A stretch of 64,000 nucleotides of DNA from Escherichia phage Sa157lw: the sequence record OK322699.1. One strand, given 5' to 3'. Shown here in pieces: positions 9,291 to 23,611 of the stretch; position 1 is the stretch's first letter, and every line of letters begins with the position of its first letter. Under the pieces are notes generated by a model. That model made no database searches. It worked only from the letters and a program-made list of their open reading frames with translations, and had not been told where the DNA came from. The translations under genes were made by a program, and so were the position numbers.

Positions 9291-10400
9291 TTAAAACAAA
9301 CGTTTGTAAGTGCGACCATTGTACTGCATATGGCCTAATATGAAAATTGCGGTAAACGGAACACAACCTAATAAAACGACGATAATCACTTCCCATGTCT
9401 TGAGGTCACGCCATTTCAGATACTCCATTTCCTTCATTTCAACGCGGTTATAGCCTTTGCTGATATTGACTGCAACTTCTTGGAATACTGATATCCCCAT
9501 GGGTTTGCCAGTCAATGAAAGACCGTTTCGGGAATGGAGTTCCATGTTATTCATCCCATCAGCAAATGACGTGGATTTACCCCAATTGATTTTCATATCC
9601 TTCGATATGTCAGTAACCACAATGACATCGTTCTTTTTACCACCGGACCATGCATATAGCAGCCCCTGAAAATATTCCACAGGCTGGCCAGAAGTCACTA
9701 CCCACACGATATTGACCTGACGTGATGCCCCCAATGTTTTCAAAGTGTTGTTCAGATAATCATTCCAATAATCAACGGGAATATCCATCCCTGACATATT
9801 CAGAACACGAGTCACCCGATAATAATCATACACCCTTGGATATGACGGGATATGGTCTTTGAACTTCTCAGCGAATTGTTGGTCAGATTTGGAGAATAAA
9901 GAATCCTTGTTCCCCAGAACATAGTTCATATATGCATGTTCACGAGCTGCAGGTTCTCCGATTTTAACTTGCGCCCAACGCGGAGGCTCTGTAGTACCCT
10001 GACGATCAATACGGTCAATGCTCAGATCACCGACGGTTGTTAATACGTCCCAATCAACGTCATAAGAGTGCTCATAGCACGTGCTGCAATGACGCGTTTG
10101 TGTACAAGATCGGTTATTTCCTGAACCAGAGCAAGAAGTTGTGTAATAGCACATACATTCATAAGAATGACTACAGCTTACCTTGTTTCGTTGCTTATCG
10201 GTAACGTATCCATTCAAAATTTCAACATCTCCCGAACTACCCAGGGAAAATGCAGCGTATGCTCCCGCCTGGATAAGACAGGATAATACAACCACTATCG
10301 CAGTAGCAATTAGCGTTTCTTTTGGTTCATGGGTTTTGCGATGGTAAACCACGAACAATATGGCTAAAATAATAGGGACCACAAACAGAAGGTAAATCAT
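9291..10400 (-). CDS. two-TM membrane protein with Cys-rich central domain
   Basis: Hydrophobic helices at both termini (LLFVVPIILAILFVV; VIIVVLLGCVPFTAIFIL) and a Cys-rich stretch (CSHSYECMCYYTTSCSG...CTQTRHCSTC). Confidence 0.5.
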   Translation of the reverse strand: MIYLLFVVPIILAILFVVYHRKTHEPKETLIATAIVVVLSCLIQAGAYAAFSLGSSGDVEILNGYVTDKQRNKVSCSHSYECMCYYTTSCSGSGNNRSCTQTRHCSTCYEHSYDVDWDVLTTVGDLSIDRIDRQGTTEPPRWAQVKIGEPAAREHAYMNYVLGNKDSLFSKSDQQFAEKFKDHIPSYPRVYDYYRVTRVLNMSGMDIPVDYWNDYLNNTLKTLGASRQVNIVWVVTSGQPVEYFQGLLYAWSGGKKNDVIVVTDISKDMKINWGKSTSFADGMNNMELHSRNGLSLTGKPMGISVFQEVAVNISKGYNRVEMKEMEYLKWRDLKTWEVIIVVLLGCVPFTAIFILGHMQYNGRTYKRLF

Positions 10401-11321: not shown

Positions 11322-12557
11322 TCATCGTTTCAACAAAGACATGAGGTTTACACTGGTCGACTTCGGATTGTCCTCTATCTTCCGGACGGGCATTTTCAGA
11401 TTAGTGTAAACCTCAGATGGTTCCCAACGCGTACCCTGCTGCAGGTGCCATATATGTAGAGGAACACCTGTCTCAAAGAACACAGGCATCTTCCACTTCT
11501 GGACGCCAGGAACGTGCCCTGCAGGAGCTTTTTCGCATAACAGGGTATCTGGTAGCCAGAGGGAACGGGCTTCCCATAATGCCTTACAGGAGTACTCAGG
11601 CCAGATGCGTTCCATGTAGTCGATCTCATCCCAAGTACGCTCGGCATCCCACCCGATGTAACGAGTGTTTTTCAGACGGAAGAATTTCTTAAGCCAACAA
11701 GCACCGGAAGTCTCAAAGTTCAAACGATTGATGAACGTGATGTGACCAAACTCGGCGACACAATCTTTGAATGCCTGTTCAAGATCAGCCTCAAGGATGT
11801 CGCATTCTTCATCGGTGATAGGACAGCCGTTGATCTTTTTCTTTCCGTGCTTGGTCACCCAGTCGTCACGGTTTGACAAGAATGCCGCGCCGTTGCGGTT
11901 GGACTCACTACCATCACGGTCACGCAACATGAACCCAGGGACGTCGATCTGATACATGTTGCCGAATACCATGTTCAGGGCTTCCAGGAAGTTCCAGGCG
12001 CTCAGGCGACCGAAGTATTTCCACCCCATAGCCGTGTCCCATAGCTTAACGAATTGATCACTTTGCAGTTTAGTCTCCAACAACGGACGGAAAGCATCCA
12101 TCTGAGTACGACCAGCCAGCCAATCAATGTAGGACTGAACACACGGGATCATCTTCGATTTGCGATAGCGGCAATCAGTATCGAATCGCATACGCTCGAA
12201 GTTCAGGTTATACCAATCACAGAATCGCTTGAACTCTTGTGGTGACTGAGGCGGTACAGGAAACTCACTATAAATCGTCCATGGGCCAATCCCATTATAA
12301 CAACAGCCCCAAAGGAACGCCATCCAGATCTTGCGCTCGATCTTCTCAAGCTGCGTAATGCCTTCAGTGACTTCAATCGCATAATCCATCAGACGAACTT
12401 GTTGGTTGTGTTCTTCCGTATACGACAGCGCCTCCACCCATGCTTTGAGCAGATACATCCGATTCTCTGGCTTACGATAATCGATTGACAAATCAATTGG
12501 GTACTTCCATTCAGCCGGAGGCGTATAACCTGTCGGCATTTTAGATAGATGCGTCAT
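11322..12557 (-). CDS. hypothetical enzyme-sized protein (411 aa); possible DNA-modification or nucleotide-metabolism role
   Basis: Long intact ORF near a P-loop kinase and a HAD hydrolase; no motif recognised with confidence. Confidence 0.45.
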   Translation of the reverse strand: MTHLSKMPTGYTPPAEWKYPIDLSIDYRKPENRMYLLKAWVEALSYTEEHNQQVRLMDYAIEVTEGITQLEKIERKIWMAFLWGCCYNGIGPWTIYSEFPVPPQSPQEFKRFCDWYNLNFERMRFDTDCRYRKSKMIPCVQSYIDWLAGRTQMDAFRPLLETKLQSDQFVKLWDTAMGWKYFGRLSAWNFLEALNMVFGNMYQIDVPGFMLRDRDGSESNRNGAAFLSNRDDWVTKHGKKKINGCPITDEECDILEADLEQAFKDCVAEFGHITFINRLNFETSGACWLKKFFRLKNTRYIGWDAERTWDEIDYMERIWPEYSCKALWEARSLWLPDTLLCEKAPAGHVPGVQKWKMPVFFETGVPLHIWHLQQGTRWEPSEVYTNLKMPVRKIEDNPKSTSVNLMSLLKR

Positions 12558-12915
12558 CCTTCACCTCGGCTTCGAGTTGGATATCTTCAGGGTTTAAAAC
12601 GGGCTGGCCCAAAGACCAAATTGGAAGGAACCGACGGTCATTGGATACTACCCAGATTTGCTTGGCGGTTTTCGTTTTTTCAGAAATATAATGCTGGGCA
12701 TTAACCTGAGTCCGTGCCAGCCCAATTTGCCGCCATGCACCGAAATCTTTAGAAGATGGATTGGTGTTCAGCTGGAATTGGGGAATGATTTTATTCTGTT
12801 CCGGATAATATCGGACAGCGTTAATCATATTGGCATCGCCACGATAGTCAACAGCAATAGCAATGGCATTGCGTGGAATAAGAATTTTCATTTTAATTCC
12901 TTTTGAAACTTTCAA
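12541..12915 (-). CDS. hypothetical protein (124 aa)
   Basis: Intact ORF. Confidence 0.4.
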   Translation of the reverse strand: MKVSKGIKMKILIPRNAIAIAVDYRGDANMINAVRYYPEQNKIIPQFQLNTNPSSKDFGAWRQIGLARTQVNAQHYISEKTKTAKQIWVVSNDRRFLPIWSLGQPVLNPEDIQLEAEVKDDASI

Positions 12916-13096
12916 TTATGTTGTAAACGAACGGCGTTAATAAAGCAACACCGCCCGAATAATATAACGCGTAAACATTCAATATTTCGGTTGAGTCTAA
13001 TTCAACGATGCCCAAATATTTCATAACACCGACAAGCATAGCTGAAAAGCACATCACCAGACCGACGAACACAAAATATTTAGACATCTTTTTCAT
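12893..13096 (-). CDS. small membrane protein (67 aa)
   Basis: Two hydrophobic segments (YFVFVGLVMCFSAMLVGV; GGVALLTPFVYNII). Confidence 0.35.
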   Translation of the reverse strand: MKKMSKYFVFVGLVMCFSAMLVGVMKYLGIVELDSTEILNVYALYYSGGVALLTPFVYNIIESFKRN

Positions 13097-13099
13097 TAT

Positions 13100-14014
13100 C
13101 TACACCTTACGCATTAGCCCCAGAAGGGACACGGATGAGGTCTTTGGTTCTTCCTTGGCGACGGCCTTGTTTTTAGTTTTGGATGCCTTCTGCGGCTTCT
13201 CAGGCACTCTGTGAGCCAAAGGATCCTGACCGCCGACTTCACGCGTCATCGGATTGGTTTCGCAATAGCCGTAGAAGTCTTTCGACATCAGATTGTTAGC
13301 GCGGCAAACTGTGCCAAGCTGATGATAGATAGCATTACCCACCACCCACAACGGGGCGTCGAACGGCAACATAGCCAATTCGCTATCATTCCCAGTCTTG
13401 AATTCTTGGGTGTTCGTAACCGTTTGGTGGTACAAAACGTCTTGCCCACTGTAATCATCCACGGCAACATTCCAGCCCAGCGCCAGCATTTCAGATTTCG
13501 ACTTCTCGAACTCCTTGGAGTAAGATTCGTTGCGCGACCAGCCGGAATCCCCCGCTTCTTTACCAGAGCGTCCACGGATGCGGGCATCGTACTGATAGCG
13601 ATCAGGATACGCAAAGTACAGCAGCGCCAAAGAATCAATCGGATAGTTCTTGAACATCCATTCAGGACGCCACTTGTCCGACAGCATCAGGGGTTCGCCC
13701 TCACACACCAGGGTATATCCCTGAGCCAGCCAACCCTTGATGAGGTCGCGAGCAATATCCCCAGAGCCTGTGGCAGCATGAATGGCGTCCATAGAGGTCC
13801 AAGACGCCAGGCCGGATTTATTGGACACTGTGTATTGGCCGACGAAGATTAACTTCAGCTCTTCAAATTTCAGGCCGAAGGGGCGCGTCTTATCCCCAAC
13901 AGTGTACGACAATTCAGTCGGCTTCAGCTTAGTGCGGAGCCACTCGATGAACTGTACGACACGAGTGCCTTTACCCGTGCCGCTGGTTCCTTTGATTACA
14001 ATGATCTTTGCCAT
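13100..14014 (-). CDS. P-loop kinase (candidate dNMP kinase or 5-hydroxymethyl-dU DNA kinase-like)
   Basis: Walker A motif IKGTSGTGKGT at the N-terminus. Confidence 0.55.
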   Translation of the reverse strand: MAKIIVIKGTSGTGKGTRVVQFIEWLRTKLKPTELSYTVGDKTRPFGLKFEELKLIFVGQYTVSNKSGLASWTSMDAIHAATGSGDIARDLIKGWLAQGYTLVCEGEPLMLSDKWRPEWMFKNYPIDSLALLYFAYPDRYQYDARIRGRSGKEAGDSGWSRNESYSKEFEKSKSEMLALGWNVAVDDYSGQDVLYHQTVTNTQEFKTGNDSELAMLPFDAPLWVVGNAIYHQLGTVCRANNLMSKDFYGYCETNPMTREVGGQDPLAHRVPEKPQKASKTKNKAVAKEEPKTSSVSLLGLMRKV

Positions 14015-14319
14015 TATGCAGCATCCTCAATGCGCCAACTCACTCCACCCAACCAAGGTGCCCAAAACACGGCAACTTGCGGATGACCATTCTCAACAAA
14101 CTTCACTTTATACTGGTCATCAAAGTTATAGAAAATTTCGTCGTCATCAGGTGCCATACCGTTTTCAATCAGAACTCGTTTTAATTCCAACGCTGCGCCA
14201 ACGGAAGTTGGTGGATTCTGATTACGGATGAAGTTGTTTACATGGATAATGATACCATCCATATCACTGTCACCGGAACGCTTGTCAGGGCTTTCTACAA
14301 CTTTATTTTGTTCTTGCAC
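14014..14319 (-). CDS. hypothetical protein (101 aa)
   Basis: Intact ORF. Confidence 0.4.
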   Translation of the reverse strand: MQEQNKVVESPDKRSGDSDMDGIIIHVNNFIRNQNPPTSVGAALELKRVLIENGMAPDDDEIFYNFDDQYKVKFVENGHPQVAVFWAPWLGGVSWRIEDAA

Positions 14320-14328
14320 GATGTGCTC

Positions 14329-15171
14329 CTATCGGACATATTGATAATGAGAAACCAGGCGATTCACCACTTCATCGAGGTTACGATTTAAGAAGTCAAA
14401 GTGGTTTTGGCCTTCTACATGCTTAATATAAAGCATATCCTCGCAATTCGAAAGATCCAGTTTTTCATAATTGCCCTGAGGGACGAAGATGACGAAGATG
14501 TTATTCAGGGCACACGGCTCAACATACTTCGGATTGTCGTCGATCAGGACATCGCCAGCAAGCAGATGCTTTTCATCCGTGCTCACGAACCCATTAATCA
14601 ACGATTCAAAGTGATGGTATATGAACTGACGCTTGCTGCGTTCGTGTTCCGGTTCGCATTTTGTAACTGCCACCATTTCCACTTGCTCAAACTTCTGAAG
14701 GAGAGCGGCCTTTAAATTCGTAAGGAATTCAACAGCCCCTGGCAGTGGTGACATTCTGGAATACAGATCAGGCATACGCCACCAATCCATCGGATCACGT
14801 CCTGTTGGCGAATCCATCCACTGACCAGCAACGAATACACGGCGCGTTAACCAGGCCGGATGCGCGCGTTCACGCATGAGGATCGCCAGATCACCAGCGT
14901 GTGACATATAACACTCTTTGGTGATTGGTTGAAATTCAGATGGGTAGTCGTGACATCCCATATTTTCCGCAGCGGCTTTAGAATTAGAAATATTGAACCA
15001 TTCAACCCACGGCGATAGGGAATCAACCAGAGTCAAATCCACATCCACCAGAACGCGATATAACCCGCCAATTTTAGAACATGCGTCATACAGACCAACG
15101 TGATTATTCATCAGATTTCTCCACATTGTCATAACCAGTTGCGGTGCATTGCTCTTCGGTGCAATCGGCAT
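14329..15171 (-). CDS. HAD-superfamily hydrolase-like protein (possible nucleotidase)
   Basis: Motif I-like VLVDVDLTLVDS (DxDxT). Confidence 0.45.
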   Translation of the reverse strand: MPIAPKSNAPQLVMTMWRNLMNNHVGLYDACSKIGGLYRVLVDVDLTLVDSLSPWVEWFNISNSKAAAENMGCHDYPSEFQPITKECYMSHAGDLAILMRERAHPAWLTRRVFVAGQWMDSPTGRDPMDWWRMPDLYSRMSPLPGAVEFLTNLKAALLQKFEQVEMVAVTKCEPEHERSKRQFIYHHFESLINGFVSTDEKHLLAGDVLIDDNPKYVEPCALNNIFVIFVPQGNYEKLDLSNCEDMLYIKHVEGQNHFDFLNRNLDEVVNRLVSHYQYVR

Positions 15172-15508: not shown

Positions 15509-18505
15509 TCAACCTTTCTTGCCCATCATGGACAACAGATTAACTCGACGTTTGTGAGACCAACCAACCACGTCTAGAATAGATTGAATCGGCTCTATGA
15601 AGGTCTTTTCAAACGTGGTGTGATAATCTACCCACTTATCCAGCCCCAACTCCGGAGGGAGGAAGTCAGGGAAGGCTATGCGGTCGTTCCCCACAGGGTT
15701 CCCAGGTTTCAGGTTAATGATTTTAACCTTATCGCCAGATTCTATCGGCGGGAGACCGAGGTCTTCATGCTTGTCTATCAGCTTGTTGTACATAATACAA
15801 GCCTTGGCAGCAAAGTGTGTGCCACTGATATAATTTCCGTTGCCGTCTAACCACTTCTCAATATCACTAACGCCAGAGGCTTGAGCAATATCATCCACGG
15901 TTAATTCCATATATTCCTTCTTATAACCCGCGATCAATTCCTGAACTTCAGCCTCCGTCCCCAGAAGAACTTTCTCATAGCATTTAACCAGACGCTCACG
16001 ACACCATTCCGGCGTTGTAGATTTACGCGCTTCCAGACCTTTGAATTTGATCTTTGGCTTCTCATACTTGATGCCTTCGCTATCGTATACCGCCATGCAA
16101 TACATCTTCTTGGCTCGCCATACAGCAGACGATGCGATGACCTCACGTTCCCAGACCATGCGCTGCTCAAACCCGTTCATGGTATTACATAACAACTGCG
16201 CCCATTCGCTGGTTTTTGGCTGGTAATTCTCTTTGATCCATTGGTCAATGTTATCAACGAGTTTGTGATGGTCCTTTTCTTCAGGCCACAATTGCTTGAC
16301 CAGGCGTTCAATGCAAATGTAGTTGGAGTCAGTATCACCCGCGATAACAAAATCCTGACCAGTAGTGCCGCAAAGTTTGTTCAGATAATCATCGGTGTGG
16401 CGTTTGTTCCATTTGTTGATCAGCTGGCCGGAAGTGGTGATTGCTTCAGCGATGTTGATGTTGAAGTATTCTTTAAACCAGACGTTGGAGATTGCGCCAT
16501 AACCTGCGTTCATCAAGATCTTCAGACCTTGTTGTAACGTGTCTTGAGCAACCCCCAGATCTTCCCATTTATGCATGACTTCAGTCAGGTGATCAAGATC
16601 GATATGCTTGTGTTCTTCATACCATTCAGGATCGTAGAAACGAGACTTCATGGCAGACTCAAGGTGGAAATCACCTTTAGACATTTCCTTACACCAACCA
16701 GCCCATTGCTCATACTTCAGGCCAGTTGCTTTCTCTCCTTTACGGTCAGCGTATATGCCTCGCATAATTTCGGAAAGGAAGGACATCTTCTCATTACTGA
16801 AGAACTGAACGTTCGGGGTAAACGAAACGTTATATCGGCGTAGTGTTTCAAAATGGAATTCGCCCAGCGCGACCAATTCATCAACAACTTGTATGCGTTC
16901 ATCAATAGCACGCTGCAACTTGTCGTGAAGATTTTTGAGATGACGACGTTTATTCATCGGCGTTGTCATATCATTCATCGCTTTGGTCAATTCCTCACAC
17001 ATGGCCTCAATAATATCACGGCGTGTGTGCTTATCAGAAACGATAGTCTCTGGACCAAGGTTGTATTGCTGTATGATGTGGGGATACAGGGAGTTTAAGT
17101 CCTCAGAGAAGACCCAGAAATATATCCCTGGTGCAACCTCCATGACATATGCGCCTTCAAAATCTGTTGGCCCATCATAGACGCGCTGGATTTTCGGGAC
17201 AATCCCCTTCTCATAAAGACGATAATAGCACATCGCCAGCCACGGTGCTACAGTGCCGAGACCGTCTTCATAGTTGGATTTAGTGCGATAAGCCAATACA
17301 AACATCAGCTGTATCAAACGCAGTTTTTGTTCTAAGCGCCACACCAGCTTGACGTCTTTGATACCATATCGCGTATGCTTGCAATAATCATTGAAATAAA
17401 GGTCATACAATGATTTGCTTTCACTATAATCCAACTTCTTCTCACCGAGTTCACAATAAGCGATCCAGTCCAGTGAGTATTTTTCGCGGGTGGTGTAAGT
17501 GTGTTTCTTGTACACTTGCATGTAGTCCATCATTGGACAACCCACAAACTGATAAGACGTGACGTCGCCTTTACGGTCTTTGATGAAACGTTTCTTCAGT
17601 TTACCCCAAGGACTGAGACGCTGGGCTTCGGATTCACCAAGAACCTGCGTAATTCGTTCAACCAAATAGGGGCTATCGAACGTTTCAATGTTCCACCCCG
17701 TCCAACCGTCAAATTGACGCTGCGACCAGTAGTTAAGGAATGAACGCAGCAGATCCTGCTCGGTGACGAACTCCATATACTCAACCTGAAGCCCACCGAT
17801 TTCAGGATCGTTCTCATCATACCTGAACTTCGCGCGATCCTTGGAACACGGCATGCCCCAGACATAGAATTTATTGGTATTCATATCTTGGAGCTGTATC
17901 AGCGTAATAGGGAACGCCGCATTCATGTTCTGTGTGATTTTACCGTTACTGTCAATTATAGGGAATTGGTCAGTCACGTTGTTGGAAATAAAGGAACCAG
18001 GGAAATGCTCCCGAACGAAGTCATGGTTGGCCAGTACTTGCTTATGGAAACGACGAACCCGCGCCTCGCTGCCTTTAAACGTGTGAGATTCGATCGTTGC
18101 GTGTGGGAATGGACCTTTAGTCATTTCTCCGTCACGCCAACCAGCCGAGAACACTTCGATATCCACGTTGGCGATGTGGATATTTGAATAATCAGGTGTG
18201 ATCATCCCAGGAAAACTATGGGCGATGAATTGATATGCATAATCCGTTTGTCCATACACCGCAGCGCCTTCGACCTCCTTGTACTCCTCAAGATAGTTGT
18301 CAGCGTCGCGCATTGATGCAAACTTTTTAGACACCAACGGTTCGTTGAGGAGGCCAATCTTTTCAACTTTGGAATAATCAGCTGTGGGTAAATACAAGGT
18401 GGGTTCGAATTTCTTACGCAACATGCGGCGATTGCCGTTGTCGTCTGCGATACGAATCAGAAGGTCGTTACCCTGTCGGGCAACGTTCGTATAGAAAACA
18501 GTCAT
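15509..18505 (-). CDS. family B DNA polymerase (T4 gp43-like)
   Basis: Exo I DIE (HIANVDIEVF), motif A DLNSLYP, motif C GDTDS; N-terminus MTVFYTNVA parallels T4 MKEFYISIE. Start set at ATG 18505 (GGAG RBS) rather than upstream ORF-track start 18607. Confidence 0.9.
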   Translation of the reverse strand: MTVFYTNVARQGNDLLIRIADDNGNRRMLRKKFEPTLYLPTADYSKVEKIGLLNEPLVSKKFASMRDADNYLEEYKEVEGAAVYGQTDYAYQFIAHSFPGMITPDYSNIHIANVDIEVFSAGWRDGEMTKGPFPHATIESHTFKGSEARVRRFHKQVLANHDFVREHFPGSFISNNVTDQFPIIDSNGKITQNMNAAFPITLIQLQDMNTNKFYVWGMPCSKDRAKFRYDENDPEIGGLQVEYMEFVTEQDLLRSFLNYWSQRQFDGWTGWNIETFDSPYLVERITQVLGESEAQRLSPWGKLKKRFIKDRKGDVTSYQFVGCPMMDYMQVYKKHTYTTREKYSLDWIAYCELGEKKLDYSESKSLYDLYFNDYCKHTRYGIKDVKLVWRLEQKLRLIQLMFVLAYRTKSNYEDGLGTVAPWLAMCYYRLYEKGIVPKIQRVYDGPTDFEGAYVMEVAPGIYFWVFSEDLNSLYPHIIQQYNLGPETIVSDKHTRRDIIEAMCEELTKAMNDMTTPMNKRRHLKNLHDKLQRAIDERIQVVDELVALGEFHFETLRRYNVSFTPNVQFFSNEKMSFLSEIMRGIYADRKGEKATGLKYEQWAGWCKEMSKGDFHLESAMKSRFYDPEWYEEHKHIDLDHLTEVMHKWEDLGVAQDTLQQGLKILMNAGYGAISNVWFKEYFNINIAEAITTSGQLINKWNKRHTDDYLNKLCGTTGQDFVIAGDTDSNYICIERLVKQLWPEEKDHHKLVDNIDQWIKENYQPKTSEWAQLLCNTMNGFEQRMVWEREVIASSAVWRAKKMYCMAVYDSEGIKYEKPKIKFKGLEARKSTTPEWCRERLVKCYEKVLLGTEAEVQELIAGYKKEYMELTVDDIAQASGVSDIEKWLDGNGNYISGTHFAAKACIMYNKLIDKHEDLGLPPIESGDKVKIINLKPGNPVGNDRIAFPDFLPPELGLDKWVDYHTTFEKTFIEPIQSILDVVGWSHKRRVNLLSMMGKKG

Positions 18506-21695: not shown

Positions 21696-22144
21696 TTAGG
21701 CTTCTCTGGTCGCCAACCCTGGCTTAAACACCACCATTTCCTCAACGTTATTGGCACTCATAGAGGCTATAGAATCGAACCCTTTGTTGACAAGTTCTTT
21801 CACATTATCATGTATCTTACCAGGCTTTATCCCCAACTCTCGCATTTTATTTTCCCACACCGAAACATTGTTGGAATCTATTACAAGAGTCTTCTTGGCC
21901 TTGACACGAAATGCCATGACAATAGGTTCACCAGATTGACGATAGCGCACGGCATTTTCTGCGTAGATCTGTGCCTTTCCGGATCCCCTGTCAGGTAAAA
22001 CCCAGCACCCATCGTACCAGAGTCAGTCTGGCCAAATTTTTCAAAATCAAATATATCGAATTCAACATTAGACCCATGATACAAAACGATATTCGTAAAA
22101 TCAGGTAGCGTTGATTCGCGATAAAATTCTAGAAAGGTTTTCAT
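21696..22144 (-). pseudogene. gene split by a frameshift at a C4/G4 homopolymer (N-part 21881-22144, C-part 21696-21950)
   Basis: Two overlapping same-strand ORFs in different frames; joining at the run at 21985-21988 gives one continuous ~139-aa protein (...GAGFYLTG|GSGKAQIYAENAV...). Confidence 0.45.
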
Positions 22145-22183: not shown

Positions 22184-23611
22184 TTAGCTGGGGACAAACT
22201 CATTCACAGGGACATGTTCGGGGATTGATAATTCAGGACAAGCAGCTTTCATCGCTTCCAGATATGGCTTGCTCCCCACGATCCAAAACAATGAGTTCTC
22301 ATTAAGCAATTCTGGTTTGTGTTCCTGTATCCATGTCATGACCTTACCTTCATAACGAGGATGCAACTCAATATCCCCCCACTGGTAATCCATGAGGTCG
22401 TTGTAACGAACCCAATTAGTGGTATGAAGATCCCAATGGTGTACCTCAAAGCGAGGAAGCACGATATCCGGCTCGTTCTTTGGCCTGATACCACTTAGGA
22501 GGCCAGCCAACGAAACGCTCTTAGAGGCATGCGGAAGATCCTTCTTACCATACACATAGTCTGGGTTGTCGTGATAGCGACGAGTGAAATCAGTTATGTG
22601 AGGGAGGTTTGCTTGCTTACCGATAATGCGCAAACGACTTTCAATGAAATCTAATCGGTTAGGTCCAATCCCGATCAGATAGACATTCTTCAGATTTGGT
22701 TTCGGATGCATCGCCAAACCTGTCAGGATACTGGTGCACGAATTACAAGAACCAGCAGGAATGATCAGATCAGTGATATGGTCTGGGATATTGGCAACCT
22801 GCTCACCACCCAGCATATGGAATCCAGCAATGCGTTCTGGTGAATGAACGGTATGATCCAATGTAATGCCATATTCCAGATAATACGCCTTTGGATTTAA
22901 TTGTTCAATGAGTTTCTTACAGCGCGGCTGAATGGTGCTATTGTAACCAGATCCAACAAAGTTAAATTCACTACCAAACCATGCTGACATTGAAACCATA
23001 TCATGGTTCATGCATGTGGTTGGTTTAGTGGCACCCAGCACAGTGGTTGTCTTGCCGCCGAAATGCCGTGAGACTGCCGTCGCCATAGGGGACTGCGGAC
23101 TACCAACGACAGTACCATGGATAAGATCTGGGGATCCTCCCGCTTTAAGATGCTCCATCATGAGCCAGATGGCCTGACGGAGTTTGCTGCCATTGATCCC
23201 CTGCTTGCCGTTCTCATAGTGGGACAGGGGCGCAAAGTAATCTTCACGCTTGAACCAAACCTTCTGATCGGTTTCTGGATTGGCGACGAGTTCACACGGG
23301 GTGTGCTTGTAGAGGTAGTCTTCCCAGTGCACCAGATTGCGGTCGAGGGAGAGAGTGGTGAATATAGACTTGCTGTGGTGCTGGGAGATTACACCATTTG
23401 GTAATGGCTGCACAGAACAGAGTTCTTCACAAATTTTCTTTGTGTCGATCGCCTGAGGTATGCCAGCGGCTGACATCTCTTCTTTCAAGGCGGCGGCAGT
23501 CCATTCTTCTAAAGTATCGCGATCGATACCGTCGGGAAAGATAAAGGGGCTGGCGGTTTCTTCGACTGCCTGTTTGGTGTGATCTATAAGTTTCTGAAGT
23601 TTGTCGTTCAT
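22184..23611 (-). CDS. enzyme-sized protein (475 aa), weakly PLP-dependent-enzyme-like
   Basis: GINGSKLRQ and Gly/Ser-rich loops loosely resemble fold-type II PLP enzymes; not a confident assignment. Confidence 0.4.
   Translation of the reverse strand: MNDKLQKLIDHTKQAVEETASPFIFPDGIDRDTLEEWTAAALKEEMSAAGIPQAIDTKKICEELCSVQPLPNGVISQHHSKSIFTTLSLDRNLVHWEDYLYKHTPCELVANPETDQKVWFKREDYFAPLSHYENGKQGINGSKLRQAIWLMMEHLKAGGSPDLIHGTVVGSPQSPMATAVSRHFGGKTTTVLGATKPTTCMNHDMVSMSAWFGSEFNFVGSGYNSTIQPRCKKLIEQLNPKAYYLEYGITLDHTVHSPERIAGFHMLGGEQVANIPDHITDLIIPAGSCNSCTSILTGLAMHPKPNLKNVYLIGIGPNRLDFIESRLRIIGKQANLPHITDFTRRYHDNPDYVYGKKDLPHASKSVSLAGLLSGIRPKNEPDIVLPRFEVHHWDLHTTNWVRYNDLMDYQWGDIELHPRYEGKVMTWIQEHKPELLNENSLFWIVGSKPYLEAMKAACPELSIPEHVPVNEFVPS

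Follow-up and report, generated by a model that had tools for sequence, protein, structure and literature searches.

The stretch of DNA analysed here, 64,000 nt of Escherichia phage Sa157lw (OK322699.1; hereafter the window), represents about 64 of the roughly 157 kb of the genome. On sequence grounds it belongs to the genus Kuttervirus, among the ViI-like Ackermannviridae: around the locus of interest, 13.5 kb of its DNA are ~96-98% identical to many Kuttervirus records, DNA identity over the interval 11322-15171 reaches 99.6% with Salmonella phage Vi01 (ViI) and 99.8% with phage UTK0005, and structural genes occupy the window from 24.5 kb onward. We deal with a cluster of genes at 11322-15171 and a separate gene at 22184-23611, for which a reading of the letters alone (the original prediction) had suggested a part in the hypermodification of thymidine in DNA, and with short C-terminal tails that some of the products share with the phage DNA polymerase. 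All four open reading frames (ORFs) were found on the minus strand where the original prediction had placed them, and the position it gave the cluster, just downstream of DNA polymerase, agrees with a family-B polymerase gene (Pfam DNA_pol_B) lying directly upstream. The genes in question are as follows:

11322-12557, minus strand: ORF of 411 amino acids (aa), predicted amino acid:DNA transferase (AADT), orthologue of ViI gp247.
13100-14014, minus strand: ORF of 304 aa, predicted 5-hydroxymethyl-dU (5-hmdU) DNA kinase of clade 2, orthologue of ViI gp243 (Vi01_196).
14329-15171, minus strand, likely start M21 at 15111: ORF of 280 aa, HAD/NT5C protein, Vi01_194 (orf00239).
15509-18505/18607, minus strand: T4 gp43-type family-B DNA polymerase, Pfam DNA_pol_B_exo1 and DNA_pol_B.
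22184-23611, minus strand: ORF of 475 aa, predicted pyridoxal phosphate (PLP)-type decarboxylase, orthologue of ViI gp226.

Each of the four flagged ORFs has strong homologues, with PHROG E-values of 1e-60 to 1e-239 and matches in 275-405 phage records, so they are real genes rather than chance ORFs. The polymerase (15509-18505) is 100% identical to Vi01_190. Orthologues were equated via accessions, by comparing the Vi01 RefSeq annotation (NC_015296) with Table 1 of PMC8989533; the ‘gp’ numbers of the Lee papers correspond to the ‘orf00NNN’ notes in NC_015296.

The kinase matches Pfam PF18747 (HMUD2) with an E-value of 2.4e-168 and 559.3 bits (cut-off 25), its residues 1-303 aligning over the full length of the profile (positions 1-298 of 298), and it is 98.7% identical to Vi01_196 (YP_004327565, gp243). 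In its Walker A motif GTSGTGKGT (aa 9-17; 13964-13990), residues G9, S11, G14, K15 and G16 are invariant across 28 homologues. ViI gp243 acts on 5-hmdU in DNA where, like gp67, it forms 5-phosphomethyl-dU (5-PmdU) (Lee et al., NAR 2021; PMC8989533), and by orthology with gp243 we infer that the window kinase phosphorylates 5-hydroxymethyl-dU in DNA to 5-PmdU.

It is barely credible, given this match, that the genes encode ordinary enzymes of the nucleotide pool, a dNMP or guanylate kinase and a deoxyribonucleotidase with no role in DNA modification. RefSeq and PHROG do name the kinase ‘guanylate kinase’, and guanylate kinases are the closest structural neighbours of its AlphaFold2 (AF2) model (mean predicted local distance difference test score, pLDDT, 84.9), but the resemblance is weak: the model has no match in the PDB at E<=1e-3, and the template-modelling (TM) scores of 0.27/0.38 indicate that just the generic P-loop core is shared. 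PDB searches with the kinase and AADT sequences likewise returned no matches. None of the dNMP-kinase and guanylate-kinase profiles of Pfam and NCBIfam matched the kinase; NCBIfam found no family at all, and the profile searches thus placed the protein in HMUD2 and not among ordinary dNMP kinases. The nearby 411-aa protein corresponds to a demonstrated serine:DNA transferase. For the kinase and the transferase the pool-enzyme reading is effectively refuted, and the database label ‘guanylate kinase’ is misleading. The original prediction had held a plain dNMP kinase or nucleotidase role to be equally possible; this does not survive for the kinase, whose sole Pfam match is HMUD2 at 559 bits, and it stands for the HAD protein, which resembles a nucleotidase of NT5C type.

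The AADT (formerly aGPT-Pplase2) matches Pfam PF18724 (ADDT; E 3e-58, 197.6 bits, cut-off 26.2) and differs in one of its 411 residues (99.8% identity) from Vi01_199 (YP_004327568, gp247). Purified gp247 transfers L-serine via its side-chain oxygen to give O-seryl-thymidine (O-SerT), and mutants in a conserved Cys or Glu are inactive (PMC8989533). By orthology, the window enzyme is predicted to swap the phosphate of 5-PmdU for the side-chain oxygen of L-serine, yielding the same product. The glycine:DNA transferases of Pseudomonas phages, PaMx11 gp46 (PUGT; PDB 8Z2M/8Z2N) and M6 gp51, share with it the fold family PF18724, a mechanism via a covalent Cys-C6 adduct and an exocyclic methylene, and a Glu-Thr-x(2,3)-Cys motif that is invariant in the alignment of the three; E282/T283/C287 of the window AADT (11697-11714) align with E243/T244/C247 of PaMx11 gp46. 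Identity to these enzymes is just 19-23%, the window AADT is ~120 aa longer, its nucleophile is the serine oxygen in place of the glycine nitrogen, and it extends into a C-terminal linker and tail not present in the Pseudomonas siphovirus enzymes.

The PLP ORF had been described as weakly PLP-enzyme-like, which is accurate: Pfam PALP (PF00291) scores 30.2 bits, under the gathering cut-off of 35. Because this match is sub-threshold, membership is based on orthology with gp226 (92% identity to Vi01_182, YP_004327553, over aa 81-474) and on phrog_3650 (E 1e-238). The Schiff-base lysine K143 (codon 23183-23185) aligns with K92 of gp226 and K36 of M6 gp52 in an invariant column. Purified gp226 decarboxylates O-SerT to 5-(2-aminoethoxy)methyl-2'-deoxyuridine (5-NeOmdU) (PMC8989533), and its orthologue in the window is predicted to convert O-seryl-thymidine in DNA to 5-NeOmdU in the same way. 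The ORF has the same ATG and ribosome-binding site as in Vi01, and the N-terminal segment (aa 3-80; 23372-23605) is 51 codons longer than in gp226 and shows no sequence relationship to it. Among 50,697 phage records, none matched this segment at more than 70% identity, the best being 38% over 84 aa in Klebsiella Taipeivirus phages; the N-terminus of the decarboxylase thus appears hypervariable.

Taken together, the flagged genes are very probably the post-replicative arm of the known pathway that makes 5-NeOmdU, in line with the proposal that they belong to the ViI pathway with its 5-hmdU DNA kinase; both the profiles and the near-identity to gp243, gp247 and gp226 point to it. Lysates containing ViI gp67, gp160, gp226, gp243 and gp247 turn 5-hmdU DNA into 5-NeOmdU (Lee et al., PNAS 2018; PMC5889632), which replaces ~40% of thymidine in the phage and blocks many restriction enzymes. 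In the scheme demonstrated by others for the near-identical ViI proteins, a thymidylate-synthase-like hydroxymethyltransferase, here encoded outside the window, would convert dUMP to the 5-hmdU nucleotide that the phage polymerase incorporates into DNA. The kinase (13100-14014, gp243) would then phosphorylate the 5-hydroxymethyl group in DNA with ATP. The catalytic Cys of the AADT (11322-12557, gp247) would attack C6 with expulsion of the phosphate, leaving an exocyclic methylene to which the side-chain oxygen of L-serine is added, and the PLP enzyme (22184-23611, gp226) would decarboxylate the serine so that the aminoethoxy group remains.

Weighing against this assignment are the diverged N-terminus of the PLP enzyme, its PALP score under the cut-off, and the absence from the 64-kb window of the dUMP hydroxymethyltransferase, the second kinase gp67 and gp160 (phmmer, tblastn); we found nothing substantive against the pathway identity. 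When the kinase, AADT, HAD and PLP proteins were compared with all window ORFs by phmmer, only self-matches were returned and no paralogues, and tblastn of the window for ThyA-like, dUTPase_2 and M6/PaMx11 pathway proteins gave nothing significant, the one exception being the PaMx11 gp49 kinase, which weakly matched the window kinase. Since these searches came back empty, the rest of the pathway must lie outside the window, and from Vi01 we infer that the phage has the ThyA-like enzyme, gp67 and gp160. At 36-39 kb in Vi01, gp67 (PF18748 HMUD1) stands beside the ThyA-like dUMP hydroxymethyltransferase (Vi01_060c), a dNMP kinase and a dUTPase_2-type pyrophosphatase; at 87-92 kb, gp160 (PF18723) lies near a MazG gene, regA and the genes for the clamp loader and the gp45 clamp (Vi01_135c). 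The clamp gene, too, falls outside the window. For the pathway genes, the window agrees with phage ViI in content, order, neighbours and catalytic residues, and differs in the longer, dissimilar N-terminal 80 residues of the PLP enzyme and in a frameshifted ART-PolyVal gene.

The hypermodification module is itself already known and explained, and on its own matters little beyond giving correct functions to genes labelled ‘guanylate kinase’, ‘homing endonuclease’, ‘threonine ammonia lyase’ or ‘hypothetical protein’. The label ‘homing endonuclease’ on the kinase arises because the kinase and polymerase genes host such elements, for which they are hot spots. The kinases of Limestonevirus Ds25CZ and Taipeivirus KpS110 reach 529-531 aa through an N-terminal extension annotated as a (homing) endonuclease; in Vibrio phage D504 a free-standing homing endonuclease gene adjoins the kinase gene; and both Ds25CZ and Vibrio phage 1.244.A have a split polymerase gene (loci L009:6790-8385, L011:6790-8379, L004:7517-8200 and L012:1073-6514).

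The two DNA-acting enzymes encoded at 11322-14014 and the polymerase resemble one another at their extreme C-termini:

15512-15550, minus strand: polymerase tail RRVNLLSMMGKKG, the reference for the shared motif.
13103-13138, minus strand: kinase tail SSVSLLGLMRKV, which resembles the polymerase tail; putative sliding-clamp-binding peptide.
11325-11357, minus strand: AADT tail TSVNLMSLLKR, putative sliding-clamp-binding peptide.

The kinase tail follows a Lys/Ala/Pro-rich linker (about aa 271-292) that is predicted to be disordered; in the AF2 model, residues 271-296 form coil with pLDDT 52-68, and a short helix (297-302) comes after them. The same shared-tail pattern is seen in the genera Taipeivirus, Limestonevirus and Miltonvirus. 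We scanned the C-termini of 905 stop-to-stop ORFs from a composite Kuttervirus genome with a core taken from the polymerase tail alone, which avoids circularity. The five highest-ranking proteins were the polymerase, Vi01_049c, gp247, gp243 and gp160, the AADT tail being third of 905. Among these, gp160 is the fifth hypermodification protein and had not been part of the original tail observation.

More distant phages were scanned, each with its own polymerase core. The top real genes were the AADT, kinase, protein 0077, gp33 and gp160 homologue in Vibrio phage D504 (1425 ORFs; the gp160 homologue, protein 0192, was identified by tblastn), and the gp160-like protein, AADT, kinase and an ORF adjoining the ligase gene in Pseudomonas phage Cygsa01. 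Delftia phage PhiW-14 had been picked beforehand, before its sequences were seen, as a test that could fail; its top real genes were gp98, exonuclease gp32, gp109 (the AADT) and gp37 (the kinase). The tails read:

Vibrio phages D504 and 1.244.A: polymerase ARKLW; kinase TK[KR]LW; AADT TRKLW; gp160 homologue TKRLW; Vi01_049c homologue TKRLW; gp33 TRKLF.
Pseudomonas phage Cygsa01: polymerase KASVMDFFS; kinase KNVFDLF; AADT NDLMGFFQ; gp160 homologue KSVLDLF; ligase-adjacent ORF SLLDFF.
Delftia phage PhiW-14: polymerase AKLGAFFV; kinase gp37 GLGGFFKG; AADT gp109 GLGSFFR; gp160 homologue gp72 TTTLAQFAP (weak); gp33 SLGGFAAT; exonuclease gp32 GLGGFFA.

Each of the four lineages thus has its own motif type, and where the polymerase tail changes type, the enzyme tails change with it. 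Cores from the wrong lineage recovered none of the tail genes, and among the 24 permutations of tails and polymerases the cognate pairing came out best for all three families: the kinase, the AADT and Pplase1 (gp160). Of 87 kinase homologue clusters, 86 retain a tail belonging to one of three types, while the linker varies in length and sequence. The most distant AADT homologues end directly after the catalytic core and have no tail. In the Pseudomonas phages M6 and PaMx11, the enzymes share no tails and the polymerases (~650 aa) are not of T4 type. Within Kuttervirus, no polymerase-type tail was found on gp33, RNase H, the ligase, gp67, the PLP enzyme or the HAD protein.

Could the likeness be coincidental, or arise without any function from C-termini that are basic and of low complexity? 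In favour of this, the motifs span a mere 5-8 residues, scores of 14-17 are attained by a few spurious ORFs in single-genome scans, and the hypothesis was framed after the tails had been seen. We nevertheless consider this highly improbable, as for all four motif types the tail turns up in the same protein families of a phage, control cores from other lineages find none of the tail genes, the cognate pairing ranks first of 24 in all three families, and the tail is conserved across homologues of 37-98% identity while the linker varies. The gp160 and PhiW-14 predictions were both checked after the idea had formed, and both held.

The polymerase, gp33 and the modification enzymes do not make up the whole tail-bearing set, because in PhiW-14 two further proteins, the PD-(D/E)XK exonuclease gp32 (L021:26496-27356) and the small NrdA.1-like protein gp98 (L022:31188-31487), end in a polymerase-type GLG[GA]FF tail. 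A small Cys-rich protein encoded near the DNA ligase gene has the polymerase-type tail of its own phage in each of three lineages: Vi01_049c, of 70 aa (L013:30355-30567), D504_0077 (L016:5591-5890) and its Cygsa01 counterpart (L019:19552-19887). The Vi01_049c-type protein falls in no Pfam family; it may bind the clamp as a so far unrecognised factor. In the window, a 369-aa protein (9291-10400, minus strand) with hydrophobic segments near both termini has GRTYKRLF as its last residues, similar to the Vibrio-phage-type tail [KR][KR]L[WF] and to the KSKKLI of Kuttervirus gp33; this may be a mere basic stretch after a membrane helix.

Several points suggest the gp45-type sliding clamp as the partner of the tails. 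In T4, the C-termini of gp43, gp55 and gp33 are highly similar, interchangeable gp45-binding epitopes on flexible linkers, and the T4 alpha-glucosyltransferase binds gp45, a precedent for a post-replicative DNA-modifying enzyme held by the clamp. The Cygsa01 polymerase tail ERKASVMDFFS is recognisably the same motif as EEKASLDFLFG of T4 gp43, and the linker architecture of the kinase is alike; for these reasons the clamp is the likely partner. On balance, we favour the view that in Ackermannviridae and PhiW-14 the kinase, AADT and gp160 are recruited to the sliding clamp through a C-terminal peptide that mimics that of the polymerase, and that hypermodification is thereby coupled to the replication fork. 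The peptide, on its flexible linker, would dock each enzyme on the clamp, coupling modification to newly replicated, clamp-loaded DNA.

Like the T4 clamp clients gp43, gp55 and gp33, the enzymes have a short hydrophobic peptide at the extreme C-terminus, a variable linker, and a resemblance to the cognate polymerase; unlike them, the Kuttervirus motif is VNLLSMM, where T4 has SLDFLF. We looked for a gp43-like tail on the T4 glucosyltransferases and it is absent from both the alpha and the beta enzymes, so that T4 alpha-glucosyltransferase has no such C-terminal tail, and clamp binding of the hypermodification enzymes is here a prediction from sequence.

Several observations count against recruitment by a polymerase-type tail: gp67, the PLP enzyme and the HAD protein are without one, the scores of gp243 and gp160 lie slightly over the noise ceiling in single-genome scans (15-18 vs 14-15), the motif was noticed first and tested afterwards, the tail match of PhiW-14 gp72 is weak, and the tail of the Kuttervirus gp33 homologue, KSKKLI, is not of polymerase type. 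The last of these also bears on the identity of the partner. The tails could be functional and dock on some other shared protein, such as the ssDNA-binding protein, the clamp loader, a replication-factory scaffold or a protease adaptor; co-variation shows that a partner is shared but not which one, and the tail is also found on the PhiW-14 exonuclease and NrdA.1-like protein. This is possible but unlikely, given that the homologous polymerase C-terminus of T4 is the gp45-binding epitope and that the Cygsa01 tail is recognisably that motif. The gp33 tails of D504 (KTRKLF) and PhiW-14 (SLGGFAAT) share the type of their own polymerases, and gp55 homologues bear lineage-matched motifs near their C-termini, that of Kuttervirus (DSPTLLAES) being only loosely similar to the polymerase tail. 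The untailed enzymes of M6 and PaMx11 likewise go with polymerases of ~650 aa that lack a T4-type tail, and the 25-kb stretches from these phages carry no annotated clamp gene.

Co-varying polymerase-type tails on hypermodification enzymes appear to be unreported. The pathway papers do not mention the clamp or the replisome, a statement that does not extend to Iyer et al. 2013 (NAR 41:7635) or the EcoSal review by Hutinet et al. The tails are the one point here that may be new to specialists, and it is directly testable. If the sliding clamp does hold these enzymes, the tether would add to the published pathway what it lacks, namely how the DNA-acting enzymes find freshly replicated 5-hmdU DNA, and would bring a second class of phage DNA-modifying enzymes, besides T4 alpha-glucosyltransferase, under the clamp ‘tool-belt’ idea. 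A eukaryotic analogue exists in DNMT1, which binds PCNA. Clamp recruitment could also explain why modification is post-replicative yet efficient, why paralogous enzymes come in pairs, with gp243 bearing a tail and gp67 none, and perhaps what sets the partial (~40%) pattern of modified sites. As a sequence rule, a polymerase-like C-terminus would flag DNA-acting accessory proteins in such phages, for example Vi01_049c.

The HAD protein (14329-15111), which carries no tail, is 100% identical to Vi01_194 over 260 aa. It matches Pfam NT5C (PF06941) with 33.0 bits (cut-off 24.8), the match covering only positions 56-143 of 180 in the profile; its Cygsa01 homologue matches positions 1-169 (E 4e-10). 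The motif I sequence DVDLT (DxDxT; 15031-15045) and the IDDN of the DD motif (motif IV) VLIDDN are invariant in 21 homologues of 41-87% identity. The AF2 model (pLDDT 87.1) has as its best PDB matches the human mitochondrial and cytosolic deoxyribonucleotidases mdN and cdN (PF06941; PDB 1Q92, 2I7D), with E 1e-6 and TM scores of 0.50/0.64, and the top 10 matches comprise mdN, cdN and a bacterial deoxyribonucleotidase-like protein (E 1e-6 to 2e-5). The HAD core, the DxDxT nucleophile motif and the DD motif are common to the phage and human proteins; identity is 14-20%, the TM scores are just 0.50/0.64, and the phage cap is larger, with a beta-hairpin insertion. From motifs and model alike, the protein is predicted to be an intact NT5C-type 5'(3')-deoxyribonucleotidase homologue.

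The human mitochondrial and cytosolic 5'(3')-deoxyribonucleotidases act on pyrimidine deoxynucleotides, and remodelling of the pool by dTTPase and dUTPase has been reported for systems related to this one. Aposhian and Tremblay are said to have found in 1966 that Bacillus phages containing hydroxymethyluracil (hmU) induce a dTMP 5'-nucleotidase; our literature search on dTMP nucleotidase in hmU phages found none. Drawing on the pool remodelling of related systems and on this nucleotidase, we think the HAD protein most likely a dTMP/dUMP 5'-nucleotidase that acts on the pool and not on DNA. It would clear dTMP or dUMP downstream of a dTTPase/dUTPase, helping to keep dTTP out so that 5-hmdUTP wins at the polymerase. 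If so, it would be a conserved pool-side accessory of the same module.

The link of the HAD protein to the hypermodification module is tentative. Vibrio phages D504 and 1.244.A and Pseudomonas phage Cygsa01 preserve the order HAD, one variable gene, kinase and AADT, at protein identities of 40-55%; in Cygsa01, the polymerase lies elsewhere in the genome. Set against a role in the module are the absence of the protein from both Lee papers (2018 and 2021), the presence of NT5C-like genes in kinase-less phages (e.g. Pectobacterium, Cronobacter and Aeromonas phages), and the lack of a HAD gene in M6 and PaMx11. The conserved order in distant phages might instead suggest that the protein works on DNA within the pathway, for instance by dephosphorylating 5-PmdU and so setting the modified fraction at ~40%. 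Compared with mdN and cdN, it has a larger cap region (aa 30-130), the Pfam profile is covered only in part, and the literature leaves unresolved how 5-hmdU turns into T or escapes modification. We regard such a role as very unlikely: the nearest folds are deoxyribonucleotidases specific for mononucleotides, the protein has no clamp-type tail, unlike the DNA-acting enzymes, 5-NeOmdU can be reconstituted in vitro without it, and the conserved order may merely reflect common ancestry of the genomes. In the Pseudomonas siphoviruses M6 and PaMx11, a gene for an HD-domain hydrolase directly follows the ThyA-like dUMP hydroxymethyltransferase gene (M6 gp59, L006:20039-20674; PaMx11 gp52, L007:16735-17331), and this enzyme may be a non-orthologous counterpart of the HAD nucleotidase.

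Three small genes complete the interval:

14014-14319, minus strand: DUF7254 protein of 101 aa, between the HAD and kinase genes (PF23912, E 3e-47).
12893-13096, minus strand: predicted membrane protein of 67 aa, between the kinase and transferase genes, 100% identical to its Vi01 counterpart.
12541-12891/12915, minus strand: protein of 116/124 aa, phrog_4163, 100% identical to its Vi01 counterpart.

The two at 12541-13096 are the counterparts of Vi01_197 and Vi01_198 and matched nothing in Pfam or NCBIfam; in the Vibrio and Pseudomonas relatives, the kinase and AADT genes have no gene between them. We considered DUF7254 as a conserved member of the module and rejected it, as the protein is unlike those at the same position in D504 and Cygsa01 and is not kept there outside enterobacterial Ackermannviridae. 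From a DUF7292 lipoprotein-like gene through the HAD, DUF7254, kinase and two small genes to the 411-aa gene, the gaps are only -17 to +9 nt. This tight packing suggests that these genes form a co-transcribed operon. The packing is the sole basis for this, since the promoter scan was uninformative, with 23 sites against 22.9 expected, no better than chance; terminator-like sites were mildly enriched (21 vs 12.9 +/- 4). Just downstream of the PLP gene lies the homologue of Vi01_183 (21696-22144, minus strand), an ART-PolyVal ADP-ribosyltransferase-like gene (PF18760). Relative to Vi01 it has a 1-nt deletion near 21980, which leaves two separate ORFs (87 and 84 aa) in place of one, reflecting either a pseudogene or a sequencing error.

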